From Marsupella aquatica (lineage: Eukaryota > Plantae > Marchantiophyta), in the NCBI GenBank assembly GCA_973895155.1, contig OZ316895.1, forward strand, positions 17,811,437-17,875,436: a DNA stretch of 64,000 nucleotides, written 5' to 3'. Made by a program: the position numbers and the translations under genes. Position 1 is the first letter of the stretch. Every line of letters starts with the position of its first letter. The notes beneath the pieces are model-generated. The model was given only the letters and a program-made list of their open reading frames with translations, was not told the DNA's origin and searched no databases. Shown piece after piece: positions 5,976-63,264 of this stretch.

Positions 5976-5984
5976 AAAATAGTA

Positions 5985-17289: not shown

Positions 17290-17316
17290 AACGTTGGAAG
17301 GGGCTGGAGTGTCCTC

Positions 17317-19243: not shown

Positions 19244-19251
19244 CTTTTATA
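19244..19251 (-). promoter_or_regulatory. Candidate TATA box of the gypsy LTR
   Basis: TATAAAAG on the - strand about 100 nt upstream of the LTR ORF ATG, followed by a pyrimidine-rich leader; conserved in the other LTR (~9146-9153). Confidence 0.55.
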
Positions 19252-38200: not shown

Positions 38201-41200
38201 ATAACAGTTGTTATGGTGAGTATAGTGGGTTCCGTGATAGAGGAATGACATCCAAACCAAGGGGGACAAGAAGGACACACAATGCCTATGCACAACCATT
38301 ATTGACAACGGAAGAGGTAAAGCTTTTCAAGAGTCCATACCTATATCATTGTGGTTTTTTTCAAGGGTTAGACTTGAACTAAACTTGTCACTCTGTGTTT
38401 TGATTTGGTGTTTGTGCTGCCACTGCAGATGGAAGAACGTGAGTTTCAAATTGCTATTCAACATATGGTAGGATCAACAAATTAACCAGTCTGGAGCAAT
38501 TGTTCTCACAAATGCTCCACAGGTAATGTCTTGTATACCTCAACCAGAATGTCTTCTTTGTGTTTTACCACCAATGTTTTGTATACAACGTCATGAGTGT
38601 CTTCTATGTTTCATATAAATGTCCCCATTGTGGTGTGTATTTTTGTAAACAATGACACCACTGTCTTTTGTGTTTCCATATACAATAACATGAATATCTT
38701 CTGTGTGGATTGCAATAGGAGGTTCGTGCACCCCTTGGACCTCTAGATCCAAACTATCTCTGGAGGAACACAACGATGGCAAAGAAACCACGGACAATAA
38801 TGCAACATAGCAGTGTGTGGCTACTTGGGTTGCATGCCCCTGGCACGGTAAAAGTCAGGAAGACATCTACCACAGGAGTATGCCGGGAGTTTTCTAGGTT
38901 TAGGCCCCCGCGAGAGTATGATGAAGATGGTTTTGATTGTTCAATGTACTGCCCATTCAGGGTCCGATGTCACAGGCAAGCTCACAACGGGGCTCATACG
39001 GGGGCTCATATCATTATTGTGTGTGAGCTGAAACACAATTGCCCAACATCTAAACACAAGTGGAGGGGCCCAACACAAAAGGCAGTGTGGTTAGGAGACA
39101 CACTGGCGCCTAGAGTGTGTAGAACTCTGAAGGTGCCAGTCAAAGAACTACTTTGCGGATTCAAGGGGATTATAAAAAGAGCAGCACTTACCACCAAATG
39201 TGGCAAGCAAAAGACTATGTACGGGATCTGCACCTTGGTGGGCAGGAAGACACATTTCAAATAATTCCAGCGTTGATTGCCAGGGTGAGAGAGACTGACC
39301 TTGGTGCAGTGGCAGTCTGGTCCCCAATGGAAGACTCCAACATTTTTTGTGGAGCATTCATTTGCCCATCAGCTACACGAAAAGCATGTACCTACATTCA
39401 ACCTCTCATCTCTCTTGATGCATGTCATACAAGAACACAAAGTACCCCACTCAACTGTTCTTAGTTGCATGTTTGGATGGAAATGGCCAAGGATTGATTC
39501 TACGTTACGCAATAGCTCCAATTGAGAACATAGATAATTGGATCTGGTTTCTGGAATTGGTAGATAGATCACTCTATGGCATTGAATCGCTTCACATCAT
39601 GCCACTCATATCAGACCAACAGAAGGTCTACTTGCCGATGTGAGTTACGTGTGGCCAGGACTGGTAAGATACATGCAACATGTGCAAACCACCTGAGAGC
39701 TAATGTCAAGAACAGGCATGGTAAAGCAACAACATATATTTTTATAGGATGCATATATGCCAATGATGAAAGACAATAAGTCCAAAAACCTTCATTGCTT
39801 TGATTCTACATATATACATTTGTCTTCTTATGTATACACCACATACTCGGTGTTCAATACACTAATATTACCTCTCCTTGAATACATAATGTGAAGTATC
39901 ACTCACGCAAATGTTTTCTTTGTGTATGACATGATTGTATACATTCAAGTATACATTAACATCAATGTTTACCCTATGCACTTGTATCAGATATGAAGCA
40001 TGTTTGAAGCAGCTGGTAGAGTCCATCAAGGCATATGAGAATGCAAATGTTGTAGACTACATAATAATTTTTGATGCAAAACTTTATGCCAGACATGCCT
40101 TTCCACTTCCCCGCATGGCAAAGGTTACAAGCAACCCTGTTGAGCAAGAAAATTCAAGCTTACTCCCCTTGCGCAAATTTTCTCCTTGCAAGTTGATGGA
40201 GTGCATGTGGGTATATGTTCAGCAAAAGTTTAAAGAAACGAAAGCAGTTGCGTTGGCTAGACGTGAAGTACTCACTATTCCAGCCCTGGTCAGGTACAAC
40301 AAGAATCTCAAGACGTTTGGTCAATGGCAACTAGGCAGGTTTGGTCAATGGCAACTAGGTAATCTTCATGCCTAGTCTTGTGTATGCATTACTAGCTAGC
40401 AACATGTTCTGTATACTGTAACATGAATGTCTTCTTAATAGCTCCGTGTTGAATTAAAATACAGTAGCATGAATGTATTCTTTATTTGAATAGTTTTGTA
40501 ATAGCCAAGTTTTCATATGTTCAGGTGTTTGATGATGGTGCGTCCACAGCCAAGGTTCAAACTACATCCCAAAATGGGGTATAACAGCGGTGACAGGAAA
40601 CAGGTAACAGAATTCCTGTTATCAGGTAACTCTTAACTGGTAACAGGAAAGTCTTATGGTAAAAGTATACTTTTTGGCTAAGTTTGCCAAAAATTAACGT
40701 CATTTTCCACCACATCATCAAGTTGAACGTCTTGTTAGTGCCAAATGTTCTACATGAATAATGTCGTCATTGAATATCCTGCTATTTAGATATTGTATCA
40801 TTTCAGAACAGTCCAGTTCAGAAAGCACAGTTCGGCCTACGAGAAGGAAAAATAAAATCCAGGCAGGGATGGAGTAATGTATGGTGGGACCCACCCTAAA
40901 TCCAGTTATACACTTAAACAACCGATCGGCGAAGAAGGGTTCTGGAATTTGCAATATTCCAGACCGGACAGAGTGTGAAAACTAGCGCCCTGTGCTAACA
41001 AAGCTTTAACAGGGAAAAACGTTTAAGTTAAGGGACAACGACATGACAATAACCAGATAAAATTCAAAATTTTAAAATATTAATTTTCTGGAACCAGCGC
41101 CAGGCGCTAACCAAAAGCAAGAAAAAACAAGTGTAATATCCGTTGACTACAGACAAAAACCTTAGTATCCGTTACGAAAAACGACAGTCTCTAGAATGTC

Positions 41201-41208
41201 GTGTTAAT

Positions 41209-44200
41209 CTACAAGCCATTCGCGTTCTGCCTATCCAGCACGAGTCTGACTTCCGCAACTGTGAAAATGGGCTGGCTACACAGGGTAGACTCCTCTACAT
41301 GAAACTTGAAGACATTTATAAACACCCAATACAAATGTTTACAAGGCATATATGGCTTGCCGCGAGAATGACGACGGAAGAAATCCTCACAGGAATAGGT
41401 TGGGAAGACGCAAATTTGGACAAAGTAAGTGTTTGGGGATCGAAGGTTCTCGTGGGTCCGGATTTTGAATTGCTTCCCAAATGCAATTCCAATACCCACA
41501 TCCCACTCGCCATCCAAATTCATAGCTTCTTTCCGAGCCGACTCCATTCGTGTACTATGAGCCAGTGTTAGATTTGATCGAGGTCTGGAGTTTCTCCCAT
41601 TCCTGGTCCGAAGGCGTACGTTGGGGTCGGCGAAATTGATTCTTTCAGGAAATGCGTTTACATTAATTCTCAAGTCAAATGGAACAGGTGTAGCGCGAGA
41701 CGTCGCAGCTATTTGGACCATCAAGACTCCCTGTGCTTCAAGGAACTCTACCTCGGCAGGTGACAGGTTGGTCCCTTTCACAACTGGCAAGATATCCGGC
41801 ACAGGAGGAAGGCGTTCAACACCACGACGCGGGCGGCTCTTGTAGCATGTTTTGTTTGGGCAGAACCATATCATTTCCGCAATGGGTGTGCCTCTGAAAA
41901 TGTGATGTCCGCTGACAACAATGCCGACAATACCTGCTGCCGAATGGAACCCAACTTTTTTCACACGATTTCGACACTCATCCCTCTCAGAATTTCCATG
42001 CAAAGTCCCATTGCACTGAGGCCCTGCCCCATATTTGGCCGTCCGCCACAAATGCCAGGTCCCTCTAGGAACGTCCATTTCCAAAGGAGTTGACTCTGTC
42101 GACAAACGTTGAAGAACAGCCGGAGCACTAAGTGGGGGTTGCGATGATGTTGCTGTTCCTCTGGCTTCAGGGGTGTTTGCGAGGGAATCACTTCCATTCG
42201 TTGAAGTGTCGCTACCGCCGAGGTCCACTATGGGATCTGTTACATTTGCGGGAAAGGAAGTGAAGGCAGTGTTGTTGAGATTCTTCCGTTTGAACCCTCG
42301 AGTATTTGGTGTAGTGATGAGAATGGTGTCATGCCAATGGGAGTCTTGTGGCGAGACAATCCCAGTTGCGAGTCCCTTCCTCTTAACCGACTTTGTGACA
42401 ATATCTCCATTCAGAGGAGAGCTCCTCTCCAGATCCAAATCAGCAATGTTGGAAAGAATCATGTTGGTTGCTTCTTCAAATAACTTGGGTGAACCAGATT
42501 GGTCTGCGGATCGGAATGCTAATTCCCAGATAGTTGGCCCCTTCCCTCTATTGAGTCCCTTCCGATATGCGCTATAACCCGCAACTTGTGACAGAGCTCG
42601 ATTTTGATCAACTTTGCATGCTTCAAAGAGACCCACCATTTTTTTGGTAGCCCATGCTTTCATGGAGGCGTGCCTTGACTTTGACCCGGTACAATTTGGA
42701 ATGAGCGCACCTTCTTCTGCACTTTTGCTCTGCAATAAAACCCGCCCAGACAAAATTTACTTCTTTTGTATAAGCAGCGCCAAGCGCTAGCAATGAGTAG
42801 GAGATAATAAAAGAAGGTTTATCGGTACAAGTTTCGTTTTCTGTAATGTTTGAAGGTTTTTTGAGTGAAAATTAAAGCCTAGCGCTAGTATAAACACACT
42901 GAGGTTTGACTAATAAACGCATCAGGAAAACTTACCACATGAATGAAATTCCCCCACTGACGCCATCAAACAACCCACCAAGATATCCAACTCTACAACA
43001 TCATCAGCTTTCTTGGGACACAGTTTCCCGCTTGCCACCACAACACGATCTCCCTCAAAACTCAATACGTCGCAACGAACGTTGGAGCATTCCTCAGTTT
43101 CTCCCATAGTTGCCGATGTTCTGGTTGCTTACCCTCCAAAACTCCTTTTGTAGAGTGTCGATGGAAAGACTGGTAAAAGTGAAATGCATCAGAGCGTTCA
43201 CGTTCAGGGTCTGGGTGCCCTCCAAAAAAGACATTGCGAATGGCGATCCATCCAGCCTGAGCATTGTCAGCCATAAAACCTTGAATGACAACATCTTGTA
43301 ACCCATTTTCCTTACAAACCTCAATCATAATTCTCCACGCTTTCTCAAAGGACTCCGTGTCTTCAGCTTTTAGTTCGCATGTGAAGATTGTACAAAGAGC
43401 TCGGAAGTTGTGATCGTAAACGTGTGCACTGAAAGTAAACCAGTCGGTTGTCACTCGCTTCATGACATCAAAACTCACCCAAGCTCCTTCCAATCTTCCG
43501 CCGGGTTGCATCTACCGGAGAAGATCTACACCAGATCCATGACCCTTGACTGTCATTTTGAATATATGGGGCCTATCTGCTACACAACCCTGACCCGGCA
43601 GGAGGTACCTTTGGAGGAAAGAAATGTTATTTGATTTTTGCATCCGAGCTAGGAAATCTAACTCACCACGACCAGCCTGGTCCATTCAAACGCTTCGACA
43701 AAGTGATGCAAATTTCTGGGGGGTAGACAGTACCATGAGAGACTTCCAAATCTTCGTTTCTTCAATATCTACTGTCATCCACATTTTTGCAAAGAGCTTT
43801 CACGAGCGAACCGGTTGCGGAATTCAAAATACCAGCCGGCTTTGCTAGAGGATTGGCTTCATGATTTTTTCTTATCAAATCCTCAGCTATCTTCTGAGTG
43901 CTCCTTGAGAAAACTTTCCTACTCTGATGGTTATGCTCACCTATATGAACTGCGAGCCGAGACATGTGACTACAGGTCTCTGTATCAAGAAGGACTTGAG
44001 GGTACATATAAAACAAGCGACCAGGGCAAGACTTCACACAGAAAGGAATCTGCGCACAATAGTGACAGACTACACCACCCTCTTCAATCAACGAACCCAC
44101 CACGTGCTGGCCACTGAGTTTAGGAGCACCATGCCAGGCCTTTGCATTGCATCTCTTCTTTCGCTGAAAGTACTCACAGGACTTGTTCCCGCACTCGATG

Positions 44201-44919
44201 AACCCGGTACACGTAACCTTACCAAATTCCCAATGTTTCTTTGGATGCACGTTCGCAGTTGTCAGAAAAATTTGGGTTCAAATGTAACAATCTTTGGCAC
44301 GGTCCATGTCACGAAGTCTAGATCCCTTGGAGAGCGTTCCCTCAATGGGAGGCAGTTCAAATACAACATTTCCATTGTACTTGTCTGGCAAACAAGGAAC
44401 TTGCTCATGCCGGAAGTCCCCTGCCGAGATAAATCTTGACAGTTCACTATGTCTCGTGGCCTTGAGTAAGGCGTCCATCGCACTCCTCCGGTAGACTTTA
44501 TGACCAACTCCGGAGGTAGCCACCGGCTCATCCTTAACAAAAGCGGAAACCGGAACTTTGTATTGCGATGGAGGAGTGGGTGAAACATCACCATCTTCAC
44601 TGTCAGATATGTCAACAACAACAACAGGAATGTTCCCAACTACTGGTTCCGGAGCGACACGTCTGACATTAAGCGTGTAACTAAGCCCGGCATTCATATG
44701 CCAAAAGCGTACTCCCTCATCTACATCGAATGCCGCAGCCCGTTGAAGTTCTCCACTCATCGATTCCTGTGGAACAATGGACTCAATATCATTCATCCTC
44801 AAATCAAATCTCCCGCAAAGGTAGGTTTCACTAACTTGCTTGTAAGCATCAGAGACTTGCACGGGGATGTTGACGACGTCTCCAGTACAAGCACGTGTAA
44901 TTACAATTGAGCGAGACAT
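41209..44919 (-). pseudogene. GCM-like zinc domain + MULE-type DDE + SWIM transposase (pseudogenised; intron 42935-42730)
   Basis: CTGFIECGNKSC...CHYC...SCPGR...HIGEHNH (GCM-like); WVSFD (D1), GFMADNAQAGW (D2), DAFH (C/DxxH), PNCTGSKSRH (expected catalytic E appears as K, G>A); C-terminal YSCEDF...PCKHLYWVF (SWIM); several TGA/TAG stops at likely CGA/CAG codons. Confidence 0.8.
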
Positions 44920-46032
44920 TCTGGAGAAAATGAAGGAATCAACAAAGCAAATTCCTCCCAAATGGAATGCTTATACTAATGCGTGAAGACGACTGACCGT
45001 TATAAAAGTCGATTGAATACGACATAGAATTGTGTCCGTTGAAATCATAAATGAAGAGTTTGTCCTTTTTGCCCCGGTAAGTGCGGGTGTCAGGGATATT
45101 TATTGTGTCAAAATGAACACATATAGACCAAGATAATTCACATGATTTCAGCAGCGCCTGGCGCTACCAAAAATTCCATCATTTATAAGGTTAGAATTTG
45201 GTCACACACCAGACTAGCGCCGAGTGCTAGCATTATAGTGGACACCAATAAGTCTACTATTTTGTATCTAAAAATGCAATATCGTCCAAATTTAAGCACA
45301 ATTCAGGGACATATGTACTAGCGCCGGGCGCTAGTATTGGTACACCATATTTAAGGACCAAATGTGAACAAAATTAAACTTCCTACGTCCTAAAGTTCTT
45401 CATTTCCAAAAAAAATCACCTACACTATGACAAAAACATAACCTTGAATGGACCACGGAATGGGTAGCGTCGGGCGCTATCTATTGAAGACATTAAATTG
45501 TATGACCAATGTGGTTAAAAAATTTTACTAGCGCTAGCATTGCATTACCAAGTTTTAGTAGTCTGGTCAACGGTAATATTTAACGGTAACTATGGTTAGC
45601 GTGATCTTCACGAAAATAGTTTAGCGGATTCTACATTAATATCTGTCACAGTTCTTAGATTGTCGCTTTGTTTTAACGATAAGTAATACCCAATTTCATC
45701 ATAACATCTCTTAAATAGATTACATCGAGGGAGATAGCATTGATCAATCGCGTATAATACTCCATCAACTATTAATTTGGTACGAAGATTTAGTACTCGA
45801 TCGTGAGAATTGTAGTGTACGACCGTTCGTACAACACTCATCACGGGAGACGATGGATGCAGTCCCCTCCTCGTCGAGGGGGTATAGTGTTGTGGGGGAT
45901 CGTGATCATGGCTATTGCGAGTCTTCTGAGTCTTCATTTTCAGGTTCAGTGTATACACGTTGAGTGACGAGGTCAAGTGCATCGCTTGTTCCCATCTCAA
46001 GTAATTCGTTTCCGAAGCCGACGTGAAAAAAG

Positions 46033-49000
46033 ATGGAGAATGTTGACACATTTGCAATCGGAGATGTCTCGTTCTTGGAGACCGACCTTATTTTGAAACA
46101 TGTCATGTTCTTTGGGAAGGATTTCCGAGGGTTTAACAAGGAGCCTCCTAGGATTCCGCTGTGTTGGTTGGTGCACATGGAGGTCGTCTGCACTTTGCAG
46201 AAAGATAGCTCCTCCATTGACAAGTTGAAAGACTCTTTTTGTAGTATGGGATACAATTCGTCGATAGGAATGAGGTTTTATGTTCAGCCAGCGGACGCTG
46301 AGGGAGTGACGCTCACTTGCACATAGGAAATTTGTAATAATTGGGATCCAATATGGACATCCGAAAACAAAAAGTTTGAGGAAGAATGTGCGGCAGACCC
46401 CAATTTTATTGTTCTGAAGGATAAGATGTTCTCAGTTTTTGACGAGAACCATCGGTTGTACTCCTGGACACTTGTCACTAAGGAGAATCCAGAAAACCCG
46501 AAATACCACCCACGAGTGCTTTGTACTGTCTTCAATGGGGACAAGGGTTCACTAATTGAAATTGAAGCAGCGATGCACACCGTGAACCAATAAGTTTGTC
46601 TTTATAGCATATCTTGGAGAGGAATTGTTTTACGAGCGCCCGACGCTGCTTAAATGGTTTTCTAATTCCTTTGTTTTCCTTCAGGCTTGGACAAGCCGTG
46701 GTCGAACCGTCATGGATCCTTGACGCAGATCGAATCAAGAGGATTTTGATTCACGACCTGGAGTACTATAGTAAGCTCATCGACCCTACGAATTATAAGA
46801 AGTTTGAGCAGATCAGGCTGAAGACGCGGAAAGGATCCTGGTACACGAAGAAGATGCCTCAAGAGGCTTTTGTCTATATTCTTTGTGAGAATAAGATTAA
46901 ATCATATTCCAACCAGTTCAAGCTTGACATGGAGTCTGCTGCGGCTCTAGGTACCAATTGGTCGGCCGAGGAGGTTTCCACAAGGCATGCCATAATGATG
47001 AAGGAGGCCACCAAGGACTGGGCAGTGAAAACATCAAAAATCACTCCTTTGTTGAGTCCTGAATTTGAGGACTTTCTCTCTATGTGTGCAGAAATGTATG
47101 TTGTGACGGAGAGAAATAAGCGAGAGAAGAAACCTGATACCGTCTTGTGTACGATGGACCGAGCCAGGATTTTTACTGCTGTTTCCGCACTCGACCCCAA
47201 GCTCAGGAGTAATTTGCTTGTCGCCCATTGCAATCCTGAGCTCCGAAGGCAATTCTTCCATCCGAACAGCGTCAATGATGATCCAGTAAAGCAGTGGTGT
47301 CATACCTGGATTACGTGGAACAATGTAGAGGGGATTGCAGTGGGAATGTTACAGTGTGCTTTGAGAGAGGTCCAACCTATCATTCCCGAGAATCGCTTGG
47401 AAGCCTGGGCATGTGAATCTTTTGAAGCTCTCATTGATATAGTTACTAATGATTTCAAGAGATACAGAGACTCGGTGAAGAGTAAGTTTTTTAATACAAT
47501 GTGGCCTTCGAAGTATCCGGACAAAGAGGACTACTCTTTGAAGAACCAGAAGTGAGCAAAAAGGTACCTCTACCGATTTTACATCCACATGGAAGTAACT
47601 AGACCTGATTACTTCTGGGCATATCCTGCCGCTTTTCAGAAGTGGACAATAATATCAGAAGGTGACAATTTATCTGATTTGTACTCTATGTACCCCGCGG
47701 AGGGAATTTTCCCAGCGAGACCTTTAAGTGAATGGGAGAGAACCCACTGTCCATGGTACCTAGATATAGACAGATGGGACTCGCCCTTTGATCACCGAGA
47801 AAAGGATGCTTTCCACAAGCTCTCTAAGTCCCAGATACCAGTCAATATTGTTTCTGACATGAAGCAGGGACTAGCGGACGATGTAGATAAGTCCACAACA
47901 GAATTGCAAATGAACTGTGAGACCACAGTTGTTCACGTTGACCGAAGCCGGAAGCCTCGCGCGAAAGGGAAACCTGATACTGCTGTCCCAAGTGAATCAA
48001 CAAAGTCCAGGAAAAAACGTAAGTATAAATTGTAGTTCTTTGGTTAGCGCCTGGCGCTGCTATGCCATTCAATATATGTTACATTGCATTTGTCTCATTT
48101 GTTTCATAAATATATATATTTTCTTCCATCTCTTCGAGAAATTTGGCCAGCACCGGGCGTTAGTATACTTTGCATTTTCCATACGCTCAAAATCTAACTT
48201 CGACTTCCATTTGAGCAGGGAGAAAGTCAGACGCCATAGGCAGCGGCGATACAAAGATAGATGCCACCCCAGAGGCATCTGAAGCCAATACAGGGCCTCC
48301 ATTTGACCCACTTACACCCGTCGAGAAAGGGAAGTCAATTGCTCTAGTAGATGCGGTCAGTACTAGAAAGAAGCGAAAAAGGGCAATTGAAGGTGGATCA
48401 TCCTCCGCTCGGGAAAGTGCGGCTGCAACAGGTGTTCAACGAGAAGTTGGTGACTTCAAAAACACTCTTTCAAGGCATTGCATGGTTGAGTCTAGCATCT
48501 CTGAATTCTATGACACAACGTTCAACAAAGAGGAGAAGCCTGACTGGGTAAATGGTGTAGAGAAATGGGCAAAGGACCTCATGAAGTCGGGATATCGAGA
48601 CAAGGGAATTGTCCGTGGGGGGAAGGAAAGATCATTTGGAGTACACGCAGGATTCATTTACCTTCCTACGGGTCTGAAACCATCGCTGCTAGATAGAAAA
48701 GTCCCAAAATGGAATACCCCCGACCACACACTGGCAACATCATTCTTTCGTGGAATGGACCCATTTTTATCAGATGACAGAATGCTAGCAGTTTTGCATA
48801 ATGGGGAGTATGATCCTATGTCTCAGGTTATATCCGCATGTCAGGAATCGAAGAAGTTTCATTGCATCTCCACACACAATGTTGTTATGTCAGTTCCTAT
48901 GTACGCACCGAAGACTGACCGACAGGTAAATTCCAAGTCGTGATCTCTGTTTTTAACACTCGTAAATGATGAATGCATGGAATGACATATCATTCTTGGT

Positions 49001-49984
49001 TTATCTCGCAGATATTCACGCTCAGGCTAGACGTCTTTTGCGAGTATCTCAGAAAGGGAAAGTACCCAAGGACTCAAGGTTTAGACCTCTGTCTGTTACA
49101 GAAGATCCCTCCATCACTAATTTAATTGGGCTTCCCACTCTCAATATAGATCCAACACCTGAATGGAATTCGCAGGGAATACCCGTCTGTCGGTTGGATT
49201 CATGTAGTCTGTGATAGAGCTCATCACTCGGCCTCGGGACATTTTCATAGATTGGACAGTTGGTTCGGGTAGCTCTTTTGTAGCCGGAGACTATTCTGGG
49301 AGGTTTGTAATTGGACTGGAGAATCGGAAGGATTTCGTTGAAACTGGTTCCAAGGTGTTCTTAAATCTACTCTCTTCTAAGGAATTAGAAACCTTGCCTC
49401 CCCCAATTCAACCACCGGAAAAGAAAAAGAGGGACAAGCTCCTGTCTGTACTTAATTTTGACTCCGATGATGAGTCAAGTGGGGGGACAGTAGATGAAGT
49501 GGACGGGGAGACAACTCAGGGGGGGAAGGAGCAATCTGCTGGCGAGAGTGATAGCGATGACTCTTCCAAGTAATGTTCTGAAACTCATAAGCTTCTTTCT
49601 CTTTTCCAGCTCCTTCATGCATTTTTTGCTATTGATTGTATGTTTCAATTGGTTTTCTTATTTGGTTATCTACCCAGGTCCGAATGGAATACCAGAAAGC
49701 ACTTCCAACTCAGAAGAAAAGTTGCACGTTTTGAAATGGATACACCAGAGAAACCATTTGTTTTGCCGTCTTACGCTGAGAACGCTGCGAGAAAGGAGGA
49801 TAGTCAAAGGACTCTGTGCTGGGAAAACAAAGGTCTCAGCCTTCAAAGAGGAGTTGACAGAAAATTTGTTAGAAACCCATATGTAGACGACGTTTCTAAG
49901 AGCAAGTATGTTGATGACGAAGCAGTCTCTACCGACAGATCATAGAGCTCTGGATCGGAATCTCAATCAGAAACCGATAATTGA
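46033..49984 (+). pseudogene. ParB/Srx-like N-terminal domain + beta-class N4C/N6A DNA-methyltransferase-like C-terminal domain (about 5 exons, pseudogenised)
   Basis: VFDENHRLYSW at ~46435-46467 resembles the ParB (I/V)DG(N/H)HR motif (G>E). GFIYLPTGL...VPKWN...FLSDDRMLAVLH at ~48650-48800 occupies the motif IV region. IELITRPRDIFIDWTVGSGSSFVAGDYSGRFVIGLE at 49214-49321 matches the SAM-binding motif X/I/II of the N6_N4_Mtase family. Introns at ~46590-46684, 48019-48218, 48926-49011 and 49570-49677. Confidence 0.65.
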
Positions 49985-50375
49985 TGTATTTTTCTTTTCC
50001 AGATTTTACTAGCGCCGGGCGCTGTTATGAAAAGACATGTATTTCATTTCATATGCTCATAATAAAATTCTAAAAACCACTTGTTGTCTTTAGTAGCGCC
50101 CGACGCTGATATCGAGGTACATGTATTTCTTATATAAAAGGTTTTAAATTGGTCTCTTCCTTTAGTAGCGTCGGGCGCTCCCCAAATGTGCACGGTTTTC
50201 CTTGAACCTTTACATCATAATATCATTCATGCGTTCTGTCGCCATCCTGTCGCCATACGTATATTGTCGTTACGTAATTAAGTCTGGCCTGTCTCAAAAT
50301 AATCGTGTCGCGATATGATTGTTTACTCAACGGTCCTATGCCCGTTCAAGCTCGCATGTTACGGGTGTCCACCAA

Positions 50376-50931
50376 TCACCGTCCTTTGGTAGTCACTATG
50401 TCAACCTTTTGGAGATGGTCGATAAAGGTGCGGACATTGTCGATAAATGGACGGACATTGTCGATCTGGTTGCGGACTTTAGGGAAAGGTGCGAACGTTG
50501 TCGAGCTGGGTGCGGACGTTAAGGTGCGGACATTGTTGACCTGCATGTGGACGTTGTCGAGCTGGGTGCGACCAATGGAGAGGAGGGAACCAATGTCGTT
50601 GGACGAGATGCTTGCCTTCTTCAGTCCTTCCCGAGTTCGACCGGTGGAGAGCCACTTCAGCTCCTTCAAATCAGTTTGTGTCGACACTGAGACCGAGACA
50701 TCGACTTTTCGGAACCGTAAATCTCTTCCTTACGACAAGGCGATTAGTCCTGGGGAGAGAAATATTCCGTGGACTGGTGACCGACAGACTCCATGCGAAT
50801 TTGACGATCGGTTCTTGTTTCATCAAGTCGTTCCTGCTAATGGTCAGCAGCCCATTGAACGTCGTGTGCAAGAGCAATTGGGGCGCGTTGACTTCCTTGA
50901 TGCAAATTTTGCGGGCCCTGGCCAAGCTCAT
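50376..50931 (-). pseudogene. Possible third gene of the nested Mutator-like element, with a heptad (DNVR) repeat
   Basis: Two overlapping ORFs (50671-50931 and 50376-50687) in a CpG-rich segment; 21-nt repeats encode QLDNVHM/QVNNVRT/QIDNVRP/FIDNVRT. Confidence 0.35.
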
Positions 50932-53689
50932 GAGTTCCCTCTTCCAATTATATTCGGCTCCGGGGTTTAGGATTCAAGAGAAACTACAAGCGAGCGAGGG
51001 CGGGAGTCGATGATGACTGTCAATCACAGAGCTAAAGGTGTTCCAATCGCAATTGCTTAGGTTATTTTGGAGTGCAACCCTACGGCGATTAGGTTCCTAG
51101 GCAGCTATATTTAAGCTAGCGCCGAGCGCTGCTAAAGCTGGATGCTTTCCATATCCATTTTTCAGTACTTAATGTTTTGTTAGGATTTGGTAATCTGGGT
51201 AATATGTTTTTGCCCATTTTGATAGGAAATGCTGTTTGGATCGACCCATTTTCCTCTCCATGGTGTTACACATGGAAGGGCGGGATTGTAGTTTTAAGCT
51301 AGCGCCGAGCGCTACTTATACTCATTGCTTTTCGTCGCCCATGTAATCTCGGTGATATGTTTTCGCCCATTTTTGAAGTAAATGAATTTGTGATCGGCTC
51401 AATCTCCAATGTCTGGTTTTCCTCTTGATGGCGTTAAACATGGATTTCGGGATTTTGAGGTTTAAACTAGCAATGAGATCCGGATTTTATTGTTGTATGA
51501 CCCTGCCTCTGTTGATTTGAATTGCCTCATTTTTAGCCGCTCATTGTCTTATCGATTGAGGTTACGTAGATTTTCGTTTGATTTTTCCTTCTTCTATGAA
51601 ACCCTACCAGCTTTCTATTCGCTTCATTGATACCAGCGCTGGACGCTGGTAATCATCGCAAATTTGGGTCGGACTACCCGATGGGATATTTCCTCCGGAA
51701 TTAGACGGTTTTAATGAAAATGACTCAAATGGGCTTTAGTTTTGATTGTTTGGAATCCTTTTTTTGGTCCGATGTTTTTGGTTTTTACCTCCAATTCTCC
51801 TGGTAACAGTAACTGTTTCCTGTTACTGTTTCCTGGTTCCTGTCTTTTGTAAATACCCCCCAAAATGAGGAGTACCTAGTGTCGCTATCATCAAAGAAAT
51901 GTTGCACTTGTTGGGAGCTGCAAGAGATGGTGTGGCCATGTGAGCATATAATGGTGTGGGATGACCAGGAAGGCAGAGATTTTTCTGCTCATTCTCACAA
52001 ATGTTGGCAGACTGCTTCAATTAGGGCTTTGTATGACAATGTTTTACCTAGCTTTACTGTATCAGACTTAATGCCAAGTCCAAATTGTGTTGCTCCTATG
52101 GCTGCTAGGAAAAGGGGCAGACATAAAATGGTCTGCATCAAACAGGGTCGTTGTGGGGGAGGCATCCACCTAGGGCTCTTGGAGAAGGCAAAGATTCATT
52201 GTTTGACTCCCTTGGACAACTATTCTTGAGATATCCACTAGATGATGATCCAAACAGGGTGGAACCCTTTTCAACAGCAAACACTATTGCTGGACTTCCA
52301 ATTGTTCAAGTTCAATCGAGGGCAAAGAAAGCGGGGCCTAACATTGGGAAGTGCAGGTGCAGTTAGTGTGGGCAGGTTGGACATAACCAAAGATCTTGTG
52401 ATAAAGTCCATAGTGCGACGCCAACAGATCCGGCAAGAGCAAGGATCCAACATTAACAATCTTCTTGTATATATCATGACTTGTGGGCTTCATGCATGTG
52501 TGGTCTCATGCTAGGGTCAAATTTTAAAATTGCCTTCATATGCAGGTGGATAATGGTGATGAAGTCAATTTGGAGCACCCACCTGTGTCACCCTTTCCTT
52601 GGGAAGACCAAATACTACAGATTGAATATAGTATTGAGTCGACAGCACCAACAGCAAGCACAAGACCAATCCAGACCATTGTATCTTAGCCCCTTCTCCC
52701 AAATAGTGAACAACAATTTCCACAAGCTTTCATTGATAGGTGCATGGAATTGGCCAATGAGGCTGCAATAGTGTCAGGGATTTGGGTCACAATATCATGT
52801 TGATATTACTGAACCTTACTAATTTATTACTGAACTTTGGTTGTGCATCAAAATAGACTCTTGTCACATTTTTCCACCATTATTCTCTCATGAGTACAAC
52901 ATATTCAATCATGTTGTCTTCATGTTTCTCTTCCATCCTTGCACGTGAAGACAACAACCATGTTGTCTTCTTAACTTCCTTCATTGATATTGAAGACATT
53001 GACCATAATGTCTTCAAATTTTCAAATTTGAATCTACTTCCGCAATGATATTGGCAGGACCGTTGGTGTCGATTGAGTGTTCCATGGAGAATGTGCGCAT
53101 TTTGTGAGCGGACTCAAGCGAACATCTTTGAAGTGGTCCATGTGAGTGACAGCGGAGATCTTAGGAGACCAGTGCAGTAGAGGACGGACAGGACAACACT
53201 GCAGTGCCAGAGAGAGAGGTTTGAGTAGATTGTGCAGCACCAGAGAGAGCAAGAGCGCCAAGGATAGGATTGACATCTGGCAATGACAAAGTTCAGTTGT
53301 TTTGGGCATTGGGGTTTGCCATATGGACCGTATATGCAGTTTTGAGTGCACTATTCTTCTTCTTCCATCGCATGTTGGAACAGGTTTGTGTTGTCTCCAG
53401 TGTGGAATTGAGATAGGCTGCCTCCCCTTGCTCAGAGTACGACGCCATCAAAACTAGAGGGTCATGATTCCCCTGTAGTGGCTGCTGTTGGGCTACCAAA
53501 ACCTGTATCGGCTCGGCGCCAGGGTGCTAATGCAAGTCCATCTTTGTCATCCTCACAAGCACAATTGGTACTAAGGACAAAGCAGCTCCTCCTTGTGGTA
53601 CCTACAGCCCACAAAGACATTAGAATACATCGACAAAGAGGTATTCACATTCCACAATGAAGCAATTGGACACCAATGATGAGGACCAA

Positions 53690-56040
53690 GGAATTTTGCT
53701 GTTACACCCTTAGGCATAACTGTGAGGAGTTGGCAGCCAGTGCAGGGTCTGGTGTTGGCGCTGGTATAGGGGCTGGTGCTTCTGCTGGTCCTGGTGTAGG
53801 GGCATGTGCTAGTGGTGGTCTAGGGGTATGGGCAGGTGCGAGGGCAGGTGTAGGTGTTGGTGTTGTTACAGGGGCAGGGGCTGAGTATTCATTTGTTGGG
53901 ACAGGGGTTGGGGCAGGCGCAAGGGATTGCTCCACCAAATTTCCCTTTCCTTTTTGCCTTTTGCTTGCTTTTTCTTGTTGTTGCCCTTCCTAAAATCCAA
54001 AGCAACATCAAAAGACATTGACAAAGAGGTATTCACATTACTCAAAAATTGGACGCCGCTCATGAGAAGGAATTCAATGTGGCCTAAGACACAAAGGCGT
54101 ACCTAAGAGGGGTTGGTTGCTGGTACTGGGATTGCTAGTGCCATTGGTGCTGAGGACATTGCTGACACATCCCTTCCCCTTTGTCTTCCTCCCTACAATG
54201 AACAAAATTGTTAATTGACATAGAAGAAGTGACGGTTGTGTATTCACTCCCTGCAAAGCAATTTGATAAGGAAATTAGCTTGGTACATGAAGTCATACCT
54301 AGGAGGGGTTGGTTGTCGATACTGGGATTGCTAGTGCCACTGGTGTTGAGGACATTGCTGACACACCCCTTCCCCTTTGTCTTCCTCCCTACAATGAACA
54401 AAATTATTAATTGACATAGAAGACAGTGAGCGTTGTGTATTCACTCCCTGCAAAGCAGTTTGATAAGAAAATTAGCCTGGTACATGAAGGCGTACCTGGG
54501 AGGGGTTGCTTGTCGGTGCCGGTGCTGCTGCTGGTTATGGGGGCACTGGTGATACACCCCTAAGTCCCCTTCTACTTCCTCCCTACAATGGAGAATATCA
54601 TTAAGTGACTTGAATACACTGAGGGTTGTGTATTTAACCCCTGCAAAGTAATATGAATAGAAAGGAATGTGGCCTTGTACATGAAGGCAAACCAGGCTGA
54701 CTTGTATCAGATTTTTTGTGCACGGGCTAGAATGAAGAAATTGTAGTGCACGCCAAAGACAATTAGGTTGATGTATTCAGACTTTGCAAACCATTTCAAA
54801 CTAATGTTTTTACAGAAAACACAACTTAGGTAGACCTGGGACTTGCAAGTAACCACTTCCAAGACTTACAATCTGTGGTGCAAGGGCTGGTGCTGGTGAT
54901 TCCACTGCTACACATCCTCCACTTGCCCTTCCCCTTTGTCCCTAGACTGAAGAAATTGCAGTGCACGCCAAAGACAATCATGTTCATGCATGTATTTAGA
55001 CATTGCAAAGCATTTCAAACAAATGTTTTTACAGAAAACACAAAGGCAGACCTGGGAGGGGTTTGTTGACGTTGAAGGGGCTGGTGCTGCTTCTTCTACT
55101 GGTATACCCCTTCCCCTTCATCTTTGTCCCTACAATATATGAAGAGAATGCTTAGGGGAGTGAAAAGACATTGGGGTTTAAATATTCAGACTAGATTGCA
55201 ATTGAAGGACTTCCAAGTAAGCACTTTTGAGACTTACAATCTATGGTGCAAGGGCTGGTGCTGGTGATTCCACTTCTACAACCCCTCCACTTGCCCTTCC
55301 CTTTTGTCCCTAGAATGAAGAAATTGCAGTGCACGCCAAAGACAATGAAACAGATGTATTGAGACATTGCAAAGCATTTCAAACAAATGTTTTTATAGAA
55401 AACACAAAGGCAAACCTGGGAGTGAAAAGACATTGGGGTTTAAGTATTCAAACTAGATTGCAATTGAAGACTTCCAAGACTTACAATCTGTGGTGCATGG
55501 GCTGGTGCTGGTGATTCCACTTTTACAACCCCTCCACTTGCCCTTCCCCTTCGTCCCTAAAATGAAAGAAATTGCACTGCATACCAAAGACAATGAGATA
55601 GATGTATTTAGACATTGCAAAGCATTTCAGACAAATGTTTTTACTTGAAACACAAAGGCAAACCTGGGAGGGGTTTGTTGACATTGGAGGGGTTGGTGCT
55701 GCTTTTTCTACGGGATGGGGACTCCACTGGTACACCCCTTCCCCTTCGTCTTCGTCCCTACAATGTATGAAGAAAATGCTTAGGGGAGTGAAAAGACATT
55801 GGGGTTTAAGTATTCAGACTAGATTGCAATTGAAGGACTTCCAAGTTTGCACTTCCAAGACTTACAATCTGTGGTGCAGGGGCTGCTGGTGGTGGTCGTG
55901 TTGCTGTTGCTCGTACCGACTCCAATAGTACAATCTGTGGTGCAAGGGCTGGTGGTGCTGGTGCAAGTGGTGGTAAGGACGCCAAGACTAACATACACGG
56001 TACAGGGGCTGGTCTTGTTGCTACGACTGGCGCTATGAAG
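53690..56040 (-). repeat. Tandemly amplified exon-intron modules encoding low-complexity TKGKGK/PT-rich peptides (probable accessory gene of the host Mutator element)
   Basis: Repeated CCCTTCCCCTTTGTC(TT)CCT(CCCT)ACAATG units at ~54170, 54367, 54926, 55287, 55540 and 55736, with minus-strand AG acceptors and GT donors. Confidence 0.6.
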
Positions 56041-56082: not shown

Positions 56083-56764
56083 TATTGAGCATAGACGACA
56101 TTCGCAACTACAAGCCCATGAACCATCCAACGTACAAGAGTTGACATAGAGAGATATGTAGTTCACCTCCACATGAGACTACGTCCACGGGAACACACAA
56201 GAGCTTTACTGCACTCTAGGCCGATCGGCCATACCAAGCATCGACAGCATAAGTTCTCCCTATCTCTCAACTAGCTCCGTAACAATGAACCTTACTGTTA
56301 AGGATTGCTCTTAGTCTTGTGACTCATAGGTTACGGCACTTAGGCTAACCACAATTAGGATTTTAGCTGAGGTTAGATTAGTCGTGTGTGACCTTGTATA
56401 TACCAGGGCTAGTGTAAGCCGCTGGTGGGTGGTGCTTACTCATTGTAACAGAACAACAGGAGGAAGAGAGAGAGCATGTGTGTTCGTCTACTCTTGAAGT
56501 AAAGCTTGAGTGTTCGTGTGGACGTAGCCTTGGAGAAGAGGTGAACCACGTAGAGATTGTGTCGACTACGTGTGCATGGAATGAGTCATGGTTGTATGGT
56601 CGTTGCGAATGACGTCTTAGTTCAACACTTACTCCCACCAGGGGCTGGCACCAGCCCTGACAATATACACAACAACACTACCGCTAACCTTAGCTAAGTC
56701 CTAACCCGAGTTAGCCTCACTGTGGTTAGTTCATGAGTCACAAGACTAAGAGCAATACCTAACA
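56083..56764 (-). repeat. Copia 3' LTR, containing an inserted solo LTR
   Basis: Matches 62917-63264 except for a 337-bp insertion; terminal TG mutated to TA. Confidence 0.9.
56296..56627 (+). mobile_element. Solo LTR of a related copia family, inverted relative to the host LTR
   Basis: TGTTAAGG...TTCAACA flanked by TSD CTTAC (56291-56295 and 56628-56632). Its ends are similar to the reverse complement of the host LTR ends (ATTGCTCTTAGTCTTGTGACTCAT; GTTGCGAATG). Confidence 0.9.
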
Positions 56765-56774
56765 AACTCCCCCT
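56765..56774 (-). other. Copia polypurine tract
   Basis: AGGGGGAGTT on the - strand adjacent to the 3' LTR. Confidence 0.85.
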
Positions 56775-56986
56775 TGACTCTTGTCTTGGGGACTGGACTA
56801 ATTGCTACCATATGGAATCCTCAGCGGGAAGTTCTAGACAATCACCTAAATAGGTCTCCCCTTAAAAACCACAAGGGTTAACTAAGGGTTAACTAGAACT
56901 AAGCCGTAGCCAAACTGGAATGAGTAATCCATATACAAATAGTCACACATTGCTAAATAACTCTACTTGCACAACAACTGCAAAAT

Positions 56987-59900
56987 CTACAAAGTAGCAC
57001 GATGTCTTGATAAAGTGTCCAAAGGAATCACTTTGGTAAAGACATCAGCGGGATTGAGCTTTCCATCAATCTTGACTAGCTCAAAAGTTTTATCAGACAC
57101 TGCTTGCCTGATAAAATGGTACCTGATATCAATGTGCTTCACCCTGCTATCCATCACCTGGTTAGCAACCAAGTGAAGAGCACTCTGACTATCACAATTT
57201 AGAGACATTTTGCCATGCTCTAAACCCATCTCCGTGATCAACTTATCCAACCGAATTGCTTCCTTTACTATTTCTGCTGTTGCAACATATTCTGCTTCTG
57301 TAGTAGACTGAGATATACACTTCAGCAAGGTAGATTTCCAACTAATACATCCTCCTCCAAGAGTAAATACAAACCCAGTTGTAGATCTCCTTGTATCCAG
57401 ACAGCCTCCATAGTCAGAATTTACATAGCCAACTAACGTTCTATCTGATCTGGCATCAAATAGTAATCCATAGTCACGTGTTCCCTTCAGATACCTGAGA
57501 ATCCATTTCACAGCTTCCCAATGTACCTTCCTTGGATTTGACATGAATCTGCTAACCTTGCCCATTGTTAGGGCCAAGTCAGGCCTAGTACAAGTCATCA
57601 AATACATCAGACTGCCTACTGCCTTCTCATAAGGAATCTTAGCCATCAGACCTTTCTTCACAACATCCGTAGGAGAGAAAGCCGATGATAACTTGAAATG
57701 TGAAGCTAAAGGAATACTCAGTGGCTTACAATCCTCCATGTTGAATCGTGCAAGTACCTTCCTCGCATACTTGCCTTGATTCAAGCATAACTGTCCAGTA
57801 TTAGAGTTCCTAAAAATCTCAATCCCTAAGATCCTCTTGGCCTTACCAAGATCCTTCATCCTGAATTCAAAACTCAATTTTGCCTTGAGTTTGTCAACCT
57901 CAGATTGATCTTTAGCCACAATTAGCATGTCATCCACATAGATAACCATAATGATGAAACCAAATACATCATTCTTGATTGATTCTGTATACACACAAGG
58001 ATCATACACCATCCTTGTAAAACCTTGAACAAACATGAAATCATCAAACGCTTGTTCCACTCTCTGGGAGATTGCTTCAATCCATACAAGGACTTGAGCA
58101 ATTTGCAAACTAAGTTCTCTTGGCCCTAGCTTTTTCATAAAGCCTAGTGGCTGTCTCATGAAGATCATCTCTTCCAAGTTGCCATAGAGAAAAGCAGTAA
58201 CAACATCCATCTGATCCATCACCAGACCAAAAAACACAACAAGCTGACACAAGATCCGAATTGTAGAATACTTAGCCACCGGTGAAAAGACCTCATTGTA
58301 GTCCACTCCTTTCTCCTGAGTGAACCCCTTGGCAACAAGCCTTGCCTTGTAGATCTTATCTCCACCCTCTGAAGGACTGTCCTTCAACTTGTAAATCCAC
58401 TTGCTGTCCATCACTTGTTGACCTGTTGGAAGCTCCACCAGCTCCCATGTCTTGTTGTCACTCAAATATTGCAACTCCCTCTGCATTGCTGCATTCCACT
58501 CATGCTTCTGCTCTGAAGCACAAGCCTCACTGTACGAAGAAGACTCTCCTTCTTCCAAGATCAAAGCCATATCATCATCATCAGGTGCAATGTCAATATC
58601 ATCTAGCTTAGATGAGTCTGCCCATTGACCATACTTGGTAGAAGCTCTAGTAGAACGACTGGAAGTTCTTGTAGTGGATGATTCAGGCTGATCTGGTGCT
58701 GCTGCTGGCTGAATTTGAGGTACCCCAGTAACAACCTGCTCCTCTTGTTCCATCACAGGAACCAGCTCCAAGCCCGGAGCTTCTCCATCTCTCCTGTCAT
58801 GAACAACATCATGACTAATCTCCCCCTCAATCCGGTCCGGTATGGGAGATTTCCCCTTGTCAATATGGGAGTCCTGAGAACTCTCCCCCTTCTTTGATGA
58901 TCTGGACTCATTAAAGGATACATCTCTACTGACAATTAGTTTACAGGTGACTGGATCCCATAACCTATAACCCTTTACACCATTCTGATAGCCAAGAGAA
59001 ATGCACTTCTTCGACTTGGACTCTAACTTGGATAGAAGCTGGGAAGGTGTAAGCATATAACCATCACATCCAAAAATCCTCAAATGTGAATAATCTGTTG
59101 GATGCTCGTACCTCATTTCAAATGGCATCTTGAATCCAATAGAACTGGATGGAGAAAAATTTACCAAATAAGCTGTAGTGTTGAGAGCTTCAGCCCAAAA
59201 CTCATGTGGTAAGCATGATTGACTCAACATACTCCTCGAGCGTTCCAATAGTGTTTGGTTGAGCCTTTTAGAAACACCATTCTGCTCAGGAGTATAACTT
59301 GTTGTGAGATGATGTGTAATCCCTTGCTCCTTACAATACGTTCCAAATTCCCCAAAACTGTATTCACCGCCATTATCCGATCGAAGATATCTCACTTTTT
59401 TACCAGTTTGATTCTCAACTTGGGCTTTCCACTCCTTAAAAGTGGCAAAAACATCAGACTTGTTGTGTAAAAAGTATATCCACACATACCTTGAGTAATC
59501 ATCTATGAACGTGACATAGTATAACCGTCCAGAATGTGAGGGAGTACGGGTTGGACCTCACACATCACTACGTACATACTCAAGTACCTCCTTGCAGGTG
59601 TGAGTTCCAACTCCAAAGGGTTTCTTGTGTTGTTTTCCAAGCACACAATACTCACAGAATTCCAACTTACAAGATTGTAAATTAGAAAGTAATCTATTTT
59701 TCTGAAGAAGAGCCAAACCTTTTTCACTCATGTGGCCCAAACGAAAGTGCCAGAGCCGGGCCATCTCCTCATGAGATAAAGTTACATTGGCTTCATCAAA
59801 GACTACATTGCCCTCCAAAAAGTATAGATTTTTATGTCGCTTTCCCTTCAATACAACTTTAGTACCAATTGAAACGTGAAGGACACCATTAGCAGAACTC

Positions 59901-61053
59901 CACCGATGGCCATTTGCTTCTAAAACTCCAAGTGAAATGAGATTTTTCATCATGCTGGGAATATGTCTCACATTCCTCAACATTCTCACAACACCATCAA
60001 ACATCCGAAATCTAACAGATCCAAGTCCAACTACTTGACATGGGATTCCATTTCCCATCAACACTAAACCGTTGGAAACCGTGTAAGAACTGAAAAAATC
60101 TCTTCTAGAGCAAATGTGAAAAGTACATGCACTATCTAGAATCCAGTCATCACTACCCGGATTTGACACTACGTTGAGAGCATAACCTTGGCATCACAAT
60201 ATGTCATCATCATCGAGTAAATCTACCTCATGTGTGCTCGATGTCGCGTTAGCTGATGCAGTAGGGTCCTTTACTCGATAATCCCTTTTCATGTGGCCAG
60301 GCTTGCCACATCTCCAACATGCAAGAGGCTTCCTCTCTTGCGATTTCCCTTTGGATTTAGATCTCCCCCGTGATGTAGATCTAAATCTGTTATGCCCATT
60401 TGTGCGCTGCGCTGGTCTTCCATGGTTCACGTTCAGCGCAGTGCCAGAAGAAGATGTTGTCTGTGCTTGACCCAACTTCTTTTGAGCATCATCAGACAGT
60501 AATGAGCTCACCACCTCATCATACAAAATGGACTTCAGATCTTTGTATAAGAGCACCTATTTCAAGCCCTGATAAGATGGCGGTAAGGAGCTTAGCAGAA
60601 GCAAAGCCTTATCCTCATCTTCAACTCCCTTACCCAGATTTGACAGATCCACCGCTAGACTGTCAAATTCATCCAGGTGATCCTACAACTTGCTCCCTTT
60701 CTTGAGCCTGAGGCTCATCAACAGAGACTTCTTGTACAGCCGGTCTGACGCATCTTCCCGGTAGTACTTCTCTCTTAGAGCCTTGAACAGTGACACGCAA
60801 TCTGCATAATCATCCAACTTCTTGATAATGTGCGGCTTGAGATAAAGCATCACTGTATTGACAGCAATCACCTGCTCCTATCTCCACTGCTTCTCTGAGA
60901 TCTCCTCTTCTCCATCATATTGCTCTTGCAAAGAGAGCAAATGAGCTAAGCCTATGGCCCAAAGAACACCCTTCACTTGCTTCTCCCACAGCAAGTAATC
61001 AGTACGACCATTGTACTTCTCCACCTCAAACTTCACTCCTCCAAATCTTGCCA
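56987..61053 (-). pseudogene. Copia gag-pol polyprotein, frameshifted
   Basis: FEVEKYNGRTDYLLW (gag); CWRCGKPGHMKRD; WILDSACTFH (PR); WHFRLGH...CEYC; LRSDNGGEY, PEQNGVS (INT); YKARLVAKGFTQ, QMDVVTAFL, IYVDDML (RT); EAEY, CDSQSA, KHIDIRYHF, NPADVFTK (RH). Confidence 0.93.
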
Positions 61054-62902: not shown

Positions 62903-62914
62903 GCTCTGATACCA
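62903..62914 (-). other. Copia primer-binding site (initiator tRNA-Met)
   Basis: TGGTATCAGAGC on the - strand, 2 nt from the 5' LTR. Confidence 0.92.
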
Positions 62915-62916
62915 CT

Positions 62917-63264
62917 TGTTGAGCATAGACGACATTCACAACTGCAAGCCCATGAACCATCCAACGTACAAGAGTTGACATAGAGAGATATGTGGTTCAC
63001 CTCCACATGAGGCTACATCCACGGGAACACACAAGAGCTTTACTGCACTCTAGGCCGACCGGCCATACCAAGCATCCACAGCATAAGTTCTCCCTATCTC
63101 TCAACTAGCTCCGTAACAATGAGCCTTACTCCCACCAGGGGCTGCCACCAGCCCTGGCAATAATTATACACAACAACACTACCGCTAACTTAGCTAAGTC
63201 CTTACCCAAGTTAGCCTAACTGTGGTTAGCTCATGAGTCACAAGACTAAGAGCAATACCTAACA
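62917..63264 (-). repeat. Copia 5' LTR (348 bp)
   Basis: TGTTGAGC...CCTAACA, followed by TSD CTACC. Confidence 0.93.

Follow-up and report, generated by a model that had tools for sequence, protein, structure and literature searches.

A liverwort Mutator-type transposon with a ParB-like protein, a probably inactive methyltransferase fold and subfamily-variable palindromes

Known systems and the liverwort element

Accessory proteins proposed to bind their own transposon have already been described in algae. In the brown alga Ectocarpus, the Sola1-1_Ec32 element carries a gene for a 1104-residue protein combining a ParB-like part with an N4-cytosine/N6-adenine (N4C/N6A) methylase, on the strand opposite to the transposase, and its authors suggest that such accessory proteins form a class whose members bind and modify the element encoding them (PMC12477816). 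In red-algal Plavaka elements (PAG2/PAG3), a gene fusing ParB to a 2-oxoglutarate (2OG) oxygenase lies beside inverted-repeat arrays, for which self-binding is also proposed, and the same Bostrychia study describes PAG homologs on Chondrus Mutator elements (bioRxiv 10.1101/2025.02.11.637652). We describe here a related arrangement in a land plant. The stretch analysed, hereafter the window, is 64,000 nucleotides long and comes from the liverwort Marsupella aquatica (contig OZ316895.1, positions 17,811,437 to 17,875,436, forward strand). It contains a Mutator-type element of 11,282 bp (40577-51858), flanked by the 9-bp target duplication CCCAAAATG, with a transposase gene and a divergent second gene, called gene 2.

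Compared by its published description, Sola1-1_Ec32 resembles the window element in its ParB-like and methylase accessory gene and in the opposite-strand layout. The differences are a Sola transposase in a brown alga as against a Mutator in a land plant, and the absence from that description of binding sites, of the state of the catalytic motif and of subfamily turnover (PMC12477816); ParB gave no match in its supplements. In the red-algal PAG system as described, ParB is fused to the 2OG oxygenase, the methylase (with SET) being a separate gene, and the sites form a tandem array, whereas those of the window element are dispersed through introns and intergenic DNA. The VANDAL/VANC system of Arabidopsis also involves a Mutator accessory gene and short motifs specific to each family, located in introns and in intergenic and terminal regions, with motif turnover via local duplication (PMC5735166). 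VANC differs, according to the same description, by its DUF1985/DUF287 domains, by non-palindromic motifs in the same orientation and by having no ParB or methylase fold; the gene 2 proteins scanned gave no Pfam match to DUF1985/DUF287. Anti-silencing was shown for VANC (PMC5735166), whereas it is predicted for the window element.

Bacterial ParB, Noc, KorB and VirB share with gene 2 the succession of an N-terminal GxxR domain and a DNA-binding domain, together with palindromic sites (PMC12704722). Within this group, VirB is a ParB-type anti-silencer which loads and slides (PMC10770331). A 2025 survey describes ParB-PF01555 (N6_N4_Mtase) fusions as common in phages, gives sulfiredoxin as the chief representative of the ParB fold in eukaryotes and considers the nucleotide preference of ParB-type clamps not predictable from sequence (PMC12704722). 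Gene 2 differs from these clamps and phage fusions by its large helical insertions, its introns and a degenerate motif IV; its likeness to the clamps comes from models and from the GxxR motif, nucleotide binding and clamping being predicted. The DUF3723 genes of fungal Starships are likewise described as accessory genes of unassigned role on large transposons (bioRxiv 10.1101/2025.02.28.640899).

The gene type, the opposite-strand layout and the self-binding hypothesis are already in print for algal transposons. What is probably new here is a land-plant Mutator combining a ParB-like protein, a methylase fold that is probably dead and a defined, subfamily-variable palindrome. The literature search, outside which lay subscription papers, Repbase and bioRxiv supplements (Bostrychia Table S6), found no report of a land-plant Mutator with a ParB-methylase gene.

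A Mutator family with a second gene

The evidence supports the existence of a Mutator family that stably carries, in multiple copies, a gene coding for a ParB-like part and a beta-class methyltransferase fold. In the window copy, gene 2 is composed as follows:

46030..46589, plus strand: exon 1, ParB-like N-terminal domain with one stop (tblastn 35-38% to Riccia proteins)
46685..48018, plus strand: exon 2, putative ParB-type DNA-binding region containing large helical insertions, followed by another helical region
48219..48925, plus strand: exon 3, linker followed by the N-terminal half of the beta-class methyltransferase fold, with YLPTG at the motif IV position
49012..49569, plus strand: exon 4, S-adenosylmethionine (SAM)-binding motif I (DWTVGSGSS...IGLE), frameshifted (PF01555 E=0.007)
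49678..49985, plus strand: exon 5, conserved tail (LPSYA...RNPYVDD), weak tblastn match to P0036/P0121

The stop at 47553 in exon 2 is private to the window copy (T>C in other copies), and the exon 1 motif DENHR reads DGNHR in other copies (46445 A>G). Intron 1 is 95 bp long, contains one palindrome and has AT instead of GT at its donor site in this copy. Exon 4 also matches a PHROG DNA methyltransferase (E=2e-4); an incidental Pfam match of exon 3 (E=0.05) was weak and taken as chance.

A HMMER search with exon 2 retrieved 108 proteins, whereas a word-based search with the same exon among long proteins gave no match. The source was checked for 20 of these 108 proteins: 15 come from Riccia sorocarpa and one from Calypogeia fissa, and the algal accessory proteins are not among the 20. 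All 16 proteins matched by the methylase region are from Riccia, where at least 34 distinct gene 2 loci are found, dispersed and often broken. Riccia relatives of 1,100-1,250 residues are colinear with the five window exons, with a break at the position of intron 1. In addition, six metagenome loci (L001-L006, 1.2-3.2 kb) encode gene 2 relatives. In all four public runs, divergent contigs cover the transposase and gene 2 in numbers ranging from hundreds to thousands. The two genes are also associated in Riccia, where the transposase relative R1sor_008879 (E=2e-12 to the window transposase) adjoins the gene 2 relative R1sor_008878, an adjacency with a chance probability of about 0.0025, and where the model R1sor_026403 fuses a transposase relative and a gene 2 relative, both on one strand. 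These two cases count as one line of evidence, because they belong to one Riccia subfamily, reached from the chimeric model.

The donor lineage of gene 2 cannot be named, because close viral or prokaryotic relatives were not found: pattern scans gave no gene 2 relatives in viral contigs and prokaryotic genomes, and only three weak motif-I matches in phages. The name 'Trimethylguanosine synthase' borne by some Riccia proteins is automatic and was not retained, the fold fitting DNA beta-class enzymes best.

Boundaries of the element and its transposase

The boundaries of the element are exact, because contigs of three of the four public runs (X1, X2 and X3, not X5) join 40567 to 51859, with a skip of 11,291. 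Its ends are the following:

40568..40576, unstranded: left target-site duplication CCCAAAATG, from the sequence and the empty-site joint in three of the four runs
51859..51867, unstranded: right target-site duplication CCCAAAATG, from the sequence and the empty-site joint
40577..40650, plus strand: left terminus, imperfect short inverted repeat in which GTAACAG/ACAGGAA units recur
51800..51858, minus strand: right terminus, repeated GTAACAG/ACAGGAA units as at the left end

Mutator elements and Mutator-like elements (MULEs) are described with target-site duplications of 8-11 bp, a range that includes the 9 bp found here, and typically with terminal inverted repeats (TIRs) of hundreds of bp (PMC6446971). 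The termini GGGTA(T)...ACAGGAA are short imperfect inverted repeats, extending over only about 30-60 bp, and thus are not the long TIRs of a Mutator; this fits short- or non-TIR MULEs. The repeated terminal units are likely transposase sites.

When the element is removed in silico, the reading frame is open again across a SWIM-like motif. The interrupted gene (38700-40576 and 51868-52300) is an older, decayed Mutator-like transposase (SWIM Pfam E=0.019), which is multi-copy according to summed contig depth in the public runs, and the empty-site joints arise because uninterrupted copies of it exist. An earlier reading of the window, made from the sequence only, had described a clean 11.3-kb element with a 9-bp duplication, short imperfect TIRs and a host frame restored on removal. 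The ends and the empty-site joints agree with this description and the frame is indeed restored, but the sequence hosting the insertion is this decayed multi-copy transposase and not a cellular gene. The CpG observed/expected ratio is 0.82 inside the element and 0.67 outside, an uncontrolled difference that carries no inference.

The transposase gene has two exons, with splice sites read by eye:

42936..44919, minus strand: exon 1, Cys/His-rich N-terminal part and MULE-type DDE core, with stops and frameshifts
41209..42729, minus strand: exon 2, open frame with a SWIM-like CxC...CKH motif, seen by eye, at its end

For the DDE piece (43065-43511), the top ESM Atlas matches are to MULE PF10551 (0.94, recognition 2931). 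HMMER assigns no Pfam family to the transposase, which places it in a divergent lineage despite these MULE neighbours. Its exons 1 and 2 match the Riccia protein P0133 with E=2e-12 and E=2e-6, respectively. Taken together, the MULE-like DDE core, the 9-bp duplication and the SWIM-like end argue for a divergent short-TIR Mutator. For a WRKY-GCM1-type N-terminal domain there is a Cys/His pattern seen by eye, with no Pfam or PDB sequence match. Two divergent genes, one of them a GCM-like/DDE/SWIM transposase, had been announced in the sequence-only reading: both genes are present and the DDE and (by eye) SWIM-like parts stand, whereas the GCM-like part could not be confirmed. This copy is, as also stated there, defective, given its stops, its frameshifts and the AT replacing the GT donor of gene 2 intron 1.

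Structure of the gene 2 protein

In structural models, the gene 2 relatives have a clear beta-class amino-methyltransferase fold. The methylase part was modelled from the Riccia protein P0114 (mean predicted local distance difference test, pLDDT, 54). Foldseek places beta-class DNA amino-methyltransferases first, with E 3e-7 to M1.HpyAVI and CcrM, and the structural Z scores reach 10.9 for CcrM and 10.7 for M.PvuII. The beta-class order, with motif IV ahead of motif I, is kept in the gene 2 relatives, as is the SAM-binding motif I (DFAGGWG in Riccia, DWTVGSG in the window). Matches of gene 2 proteins to PF01555 range from E 1e-5 to 0.14, always under the gathering score.

The catalytic motif IV gives a different picture. 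Its position reads D[LM]P[TS]G in 16 proteins, DIPEG in L006 and YLPTG in the window, it is absent from the Calypogeia protein P0060, and the canonical (D/N/S)PP(Y/F/W) occurs in none of the 133 proteins examined, many of which are fragments without the domain. Substitution tallies of all four runs show no majority change at the base concerned among the rows listed, so that YLPTG is presumably a state of the lineage and not a lesion. In N4-cytosine methyltransferases, the aromatic Tyr of SPPY/DPPY is described as stacking the flipped target base (PMC10406627). Catalysis is doubtful here because each relative seen has T, S or E instead of this base-stacking residue, and the sequences make it likely that the fold is inactive. 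Inactive methylase domains described on DIRS1 elements offer a precedent (PMC4738411). For the land-plant branch, the loss of motif IV, as read from these sequences, speaks against the self-methylation put forward in print. On a separate note, L006:2300-3157 is a distant relative with many introns, with a PREKHP segment before motif I in addition to its DIPEG.

The ParB-like part was modelled from the intact relative P0115 (906 residues folded as a whole, pLDDT 73.5), residues ~13-395 of the model being those compared with ParB. The ParB-family alignments span an N-terminal domain (13-180) and then a putative DNA-binding domain (181-395), the order found in ParB. In a structural second look, the best 11 of the 50 listed rows were all ParB-family chains. 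Residues 21-395 align with Noc on DNA (Z 6.9), and residues 13-180 with Noc, pNOB8 ParB and PadC (Z 5.0-5.6, root-mean-square deviation (rmsd) 3.4-4.8), which are modest scores; sulfiredoxin comes below the ParB-family chains, at Z 3.8. For residues 181-389, the DNA-binding domain of Caulobacter crescentus ParB-parS gives Z 4.6 (rmsd 3.2, 98 residues), and those of ParB/Spo0J/SopB Z 4.1-4.6, inside the range of the helical background. The GxxR motif is kept in 19 of the 22 protein matches and in five of the six metagenome loci; the window copy has E in place of G, which is present in other copies. Profile searches of PDB sequences with the ParB and methylase alignments returned nothing useful.

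At these modest scores, the models are consistent with ParB/Noc N-terminal and DNA-binding domains in the gene 2 relatives. Both the ParB-like and the amino-methyltransferase-like character put forward in the sequence-only reading have thus found structural backing, modest from P0115 and clear from P0114. That reading further supposed that the protein would mark or protect its own copies; of this, marking by N4-methylcytosine or N6-methyladenine (4mC/6mA) is weakened, by the lack of a canonical motif IV and by Tyr at the Asp position.

A lead, and only a lead, comes from the ESM Atlas, where the nearest clusters to P0115 residues 10-330 are fungal DUF3723 proteins of Starships (0.97, 192 of 256 features). 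This neighbourhood suggests that DUF3723 is itself ParB-like; HMMER gave no Pfam match to DUF3723 in gene 2 proteins, and no paper joining the terms DUF3723 and ParB was found in the literature searched.

Palindromes of the element and of related loci

The palindrome AGCGCCNGGCGCT occurs inside the element 5, 12, 16 and 17 times at 0, 1, 2 and 3 mismatches, respectively, and not once at up to 2 mismatches in the remaining 52.7 kb of the window; 200 dinucleotide shuffles gave a mean of 0.15 copies and a maximum of 2. Two shortened perfect forms, CTAGCGCTAG, are found at 42879 and 45528. The ~18 copies counted in the sequence-only reading are recovered as 16 copies at up to 2 mismatches and these two short forms. 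The copies span both subterminal regions, the transposase intron, the divergent intergenic region, gene 2 introns 1 and 2, and the 3' side of gene 2:

40984..41108, unstranded: left subterminal copies at 40984 and 41096
42776..42888, unstranded: copy at 42776 and short form at 42879, transposase intron
45153..45537, unstranded: copies at 45153, 45216, 45320 and 45466 and short form at 45528, divergent intergenic region
46635..46647, unstranded: copy in gene 2 intron 1, which in relatives bears other palindromes
48046..48161, unstranded: copies at 48046 and 48149, gene 2 intron 2
50011..50179, unstranded: copies at 50011, 50095 and 50167, 3' of gene 2
51118..51647, unstranded: right subterminal copies at 51118, 51301 and 51635, partly in local duplications of 150-180 bp

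None of the 16 copies at up to 2 mismatches falls in an exon; exons make up about 67% of the element (their bounds being approximate). AGCGCCNGGCGCT is therefore a family-specific motif of non-coding regions, as in VANDAL/VANC, a parallel that had been drawn from the sequence and is supported by this distribution. At 48152, other family copies in the public runs fit the AGCGCCNGGCGCT consensus better. The site contains both CG and CHG contexts. Since the terminal repeats are made of a different motif (GTAACAG/ACAGGAA), the internal palindrome is left for another protein.

Other palindromes are found in the metagenome loci. In L001, the closest locus (62% identical to window gene 2 in the ParB domain), intron 1 is expanded to about 820 bp (340-1150) and contains 13 copies of AAGCCCNNGGGCTT, compared with a mean of 0.11 and a maximum of 2 in shuffles; the window element has none. 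L005 has eight copies of a longer, third palindrome upstream of the gene. L003 (885-1000) and L004 (744-765), which are 55% identical in the ParB domain, share a CTCGGC-N7-GCCGAG-like palindrome in intron 1, with three copies in all. A de novo palindrome test gave strong support for L001 (13-16 versus a shuffled best of 3-4) and weak support for L005 (7 versus 4-5). These sequences suggest that the palindromes are subfamily-specific, as in VANDAL/VANC. Co-evolution of protein and site is suggested and no more, because the loci are short and without transposase, and because the ParB-domain tree (15 rows) resolves only Riccia clades.

Possible mechanism and alternatives

The reading that we favour, for which the chances look evenly balanced, is that a ParB-type dimer of the gene 2 protein binds the palindromes of its own family, regulating or shielding the element with no transfer of methyl groups. 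The dimer would bind a two-fold symmetric palindrome, as ParB and Noc do. Its conserved GxxR may bind a nucleoside triphosphate, letting the protein close and spread from its sites, as in ParB, KorB and VirB. The methyltransferase fold, which keeps its SAM loop but lacks the aromatic catalytic residue, would serve to bind DNA or methyl-cytosine and not to write methylation marks. The net effect would most likely be relief from, or protection against, host CG/CHG silencing, as for VANC, and protein and palindrome would drift together within each subfamily.

Several observations weigh against this reading and against the family picture on which it builds. Binding and anti-silencing are predictions from sequences and models. 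Foldseek gave no match to P0115 at E<=0.001, though ParB and Noc rank 1 and 3, and a wide structural search placed ParB chains at only Z 4.1-4.8 among helical background; Pfam, NCBIfam and PHROGs yielded no ParB family match in gene 2 proteins. The only Riccia transposase relative retrieved was found with a query taken from the chimeric R1sor_026403, whose two parts lie on the same strand, unlike the divergent layout of the window element, and none of the six metagenome loci (contigs of 1.2-3.2 kb) reaches a transposase. The palindromes of these loci were picked by eye after viewing them, the de novo test gave no support for L002, L003, L004 and L006, and L001 also holds two weak AGCGCCNGGCGCT matches. 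Of the 15 deviations from AGCGCCNGGCGCT, 14 are C>T or G>A, from which it follows that the host probably methylated the palindrome sites of the window copy. Lastly, transposases themselves are reported to act as sequence-specific activators (bioRxiv 10.64898/2026.08.24.746577).

A more specific and tentative version, to which we lend perhaps half as much credence, is a nucleotide-gated ParB sliding clamp that would load at the subfamily palindromes and spread over the element, its pseudo-methyltransferase shielding or reading methylated cytosines.

It is unlikely that the protein serves as a transposition helper and not as an epigenetic factor, condensing or bridging the 11-kb element, joining its short termini or tethering excised copies to chromosomes. 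ParB condenses and bridges DNA, palindromes are present in both subterminal regions, and the Atlas ties the ParB part (0.97) to DUF3723 of the giant Starships, which have a similar size problem. The termini are also very short for a Mutator, typical TIRs being of hundreds of bp (PMC6446971). However, most sites lie in introns and the divergent promoter region and not at the ends, and such a role needs no methyltransferase fold.

Nor is an active writer probable, in which ParB-like targeting would bring the methyltransferase to add 4mC/6mA to the palindromes or close to them. Both the beta-class order and the fold are preserved, the SAM-binding loop and the following acidic residue are conserved, Riccia and L006 retain the Asp and second Pro of motif IV, and N4C enzymes of the beta class are reported to work in Marchantia (DN4MT1 preprint) and in rotifers (PMC10406627). 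All this is countered by the T, S or E found in place of the base-stacking aromatic residue in every relative seen, by the Tyr at the Asp position, which the tallies of the four runs (among the rows listed) point to as the majority state of the window lineage, and by the missing motif IV of P0060.

We consider it quite improbable that gene 2 is unrelated to the palindromes, these being bound by the transposase or being neutral duplications or hairpins. The Arabidopsis AtMu1 transposase is reported to activate cognate copies sequence-specifically (10.64898/2026.08.24.746577), several palindromes lie within local duplications, and L002 and L006 yielded no repeated palindrome. On the other hand, the termini bear their own distinct motif, perfect two-fold symmetry suits ParB-type dimers, and distinct palindromes recur in or beside gene 2 of other subfamilies; moreover, the red-algal Plavaka ParB genes are described as adjoining inverted-repeat arrays although the transposase there is unrelated (10.1101/2025.02.11.637652).

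A one-off Pack-MULE capture of a host gene, which the introns of gene 2 and its place inside a MULE might evoke and which had been named as one of the outcomes that would overturn the sequence-only reading, is largely refuted by the many divergent contigs covering both genes in all four runs, by the 34 or more dispersed and often broken Riccia relatives and by the one that adjoins a related transposase.

Other content of the window

Additional features lie in the element and on both sides of it:

50399..50970, plus strand: possible third open reading frame (ORF) of the element, frameshifted, with six 21-bp (7-residue) repeats forming GADIVD-like heptads; it is covered by many contigs in other runs and may be a third accessory gene
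1-19533: nested Ty3-type long terminal repeat elements, including 2-kb repeats (1027-3040/5985-7998, 99%), 1.4-kb repeats (7991-9435/18095-19533, 98%), the segment 1-1026 repeated at 17074-18099, and an unannotated 608-aa ORF at 17320-19143
20717-21532, plus strand: tetrapyrrole methylase exon, host-gene-like (region 20717-26991)
26344-26991, minus strand: oxysterol-binding protein exon, host-gene-like
54094-55894: degenerate tandem repeats of about 195-580 bp
56085-63267: Copia-type element whose pol frames are long and open

Significance

The element offers exact ends, a defined 13-15-bp site, relatives with other sites in the same intron and near-complete gene models from the liverwort genus Riccia. 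The sliding clamp, if true, would be a plant counterpart of Shigella VirB and would explain how a few short sites could de-silence a 10-kb element; it may also be common to the DUF3723 genes of fungal Starships. It would amount to a ParB-type DNA clamp in a eukaryote and to a second, independent VANC-like system, with protein-site pairs that would be usable for chromatin targeting.

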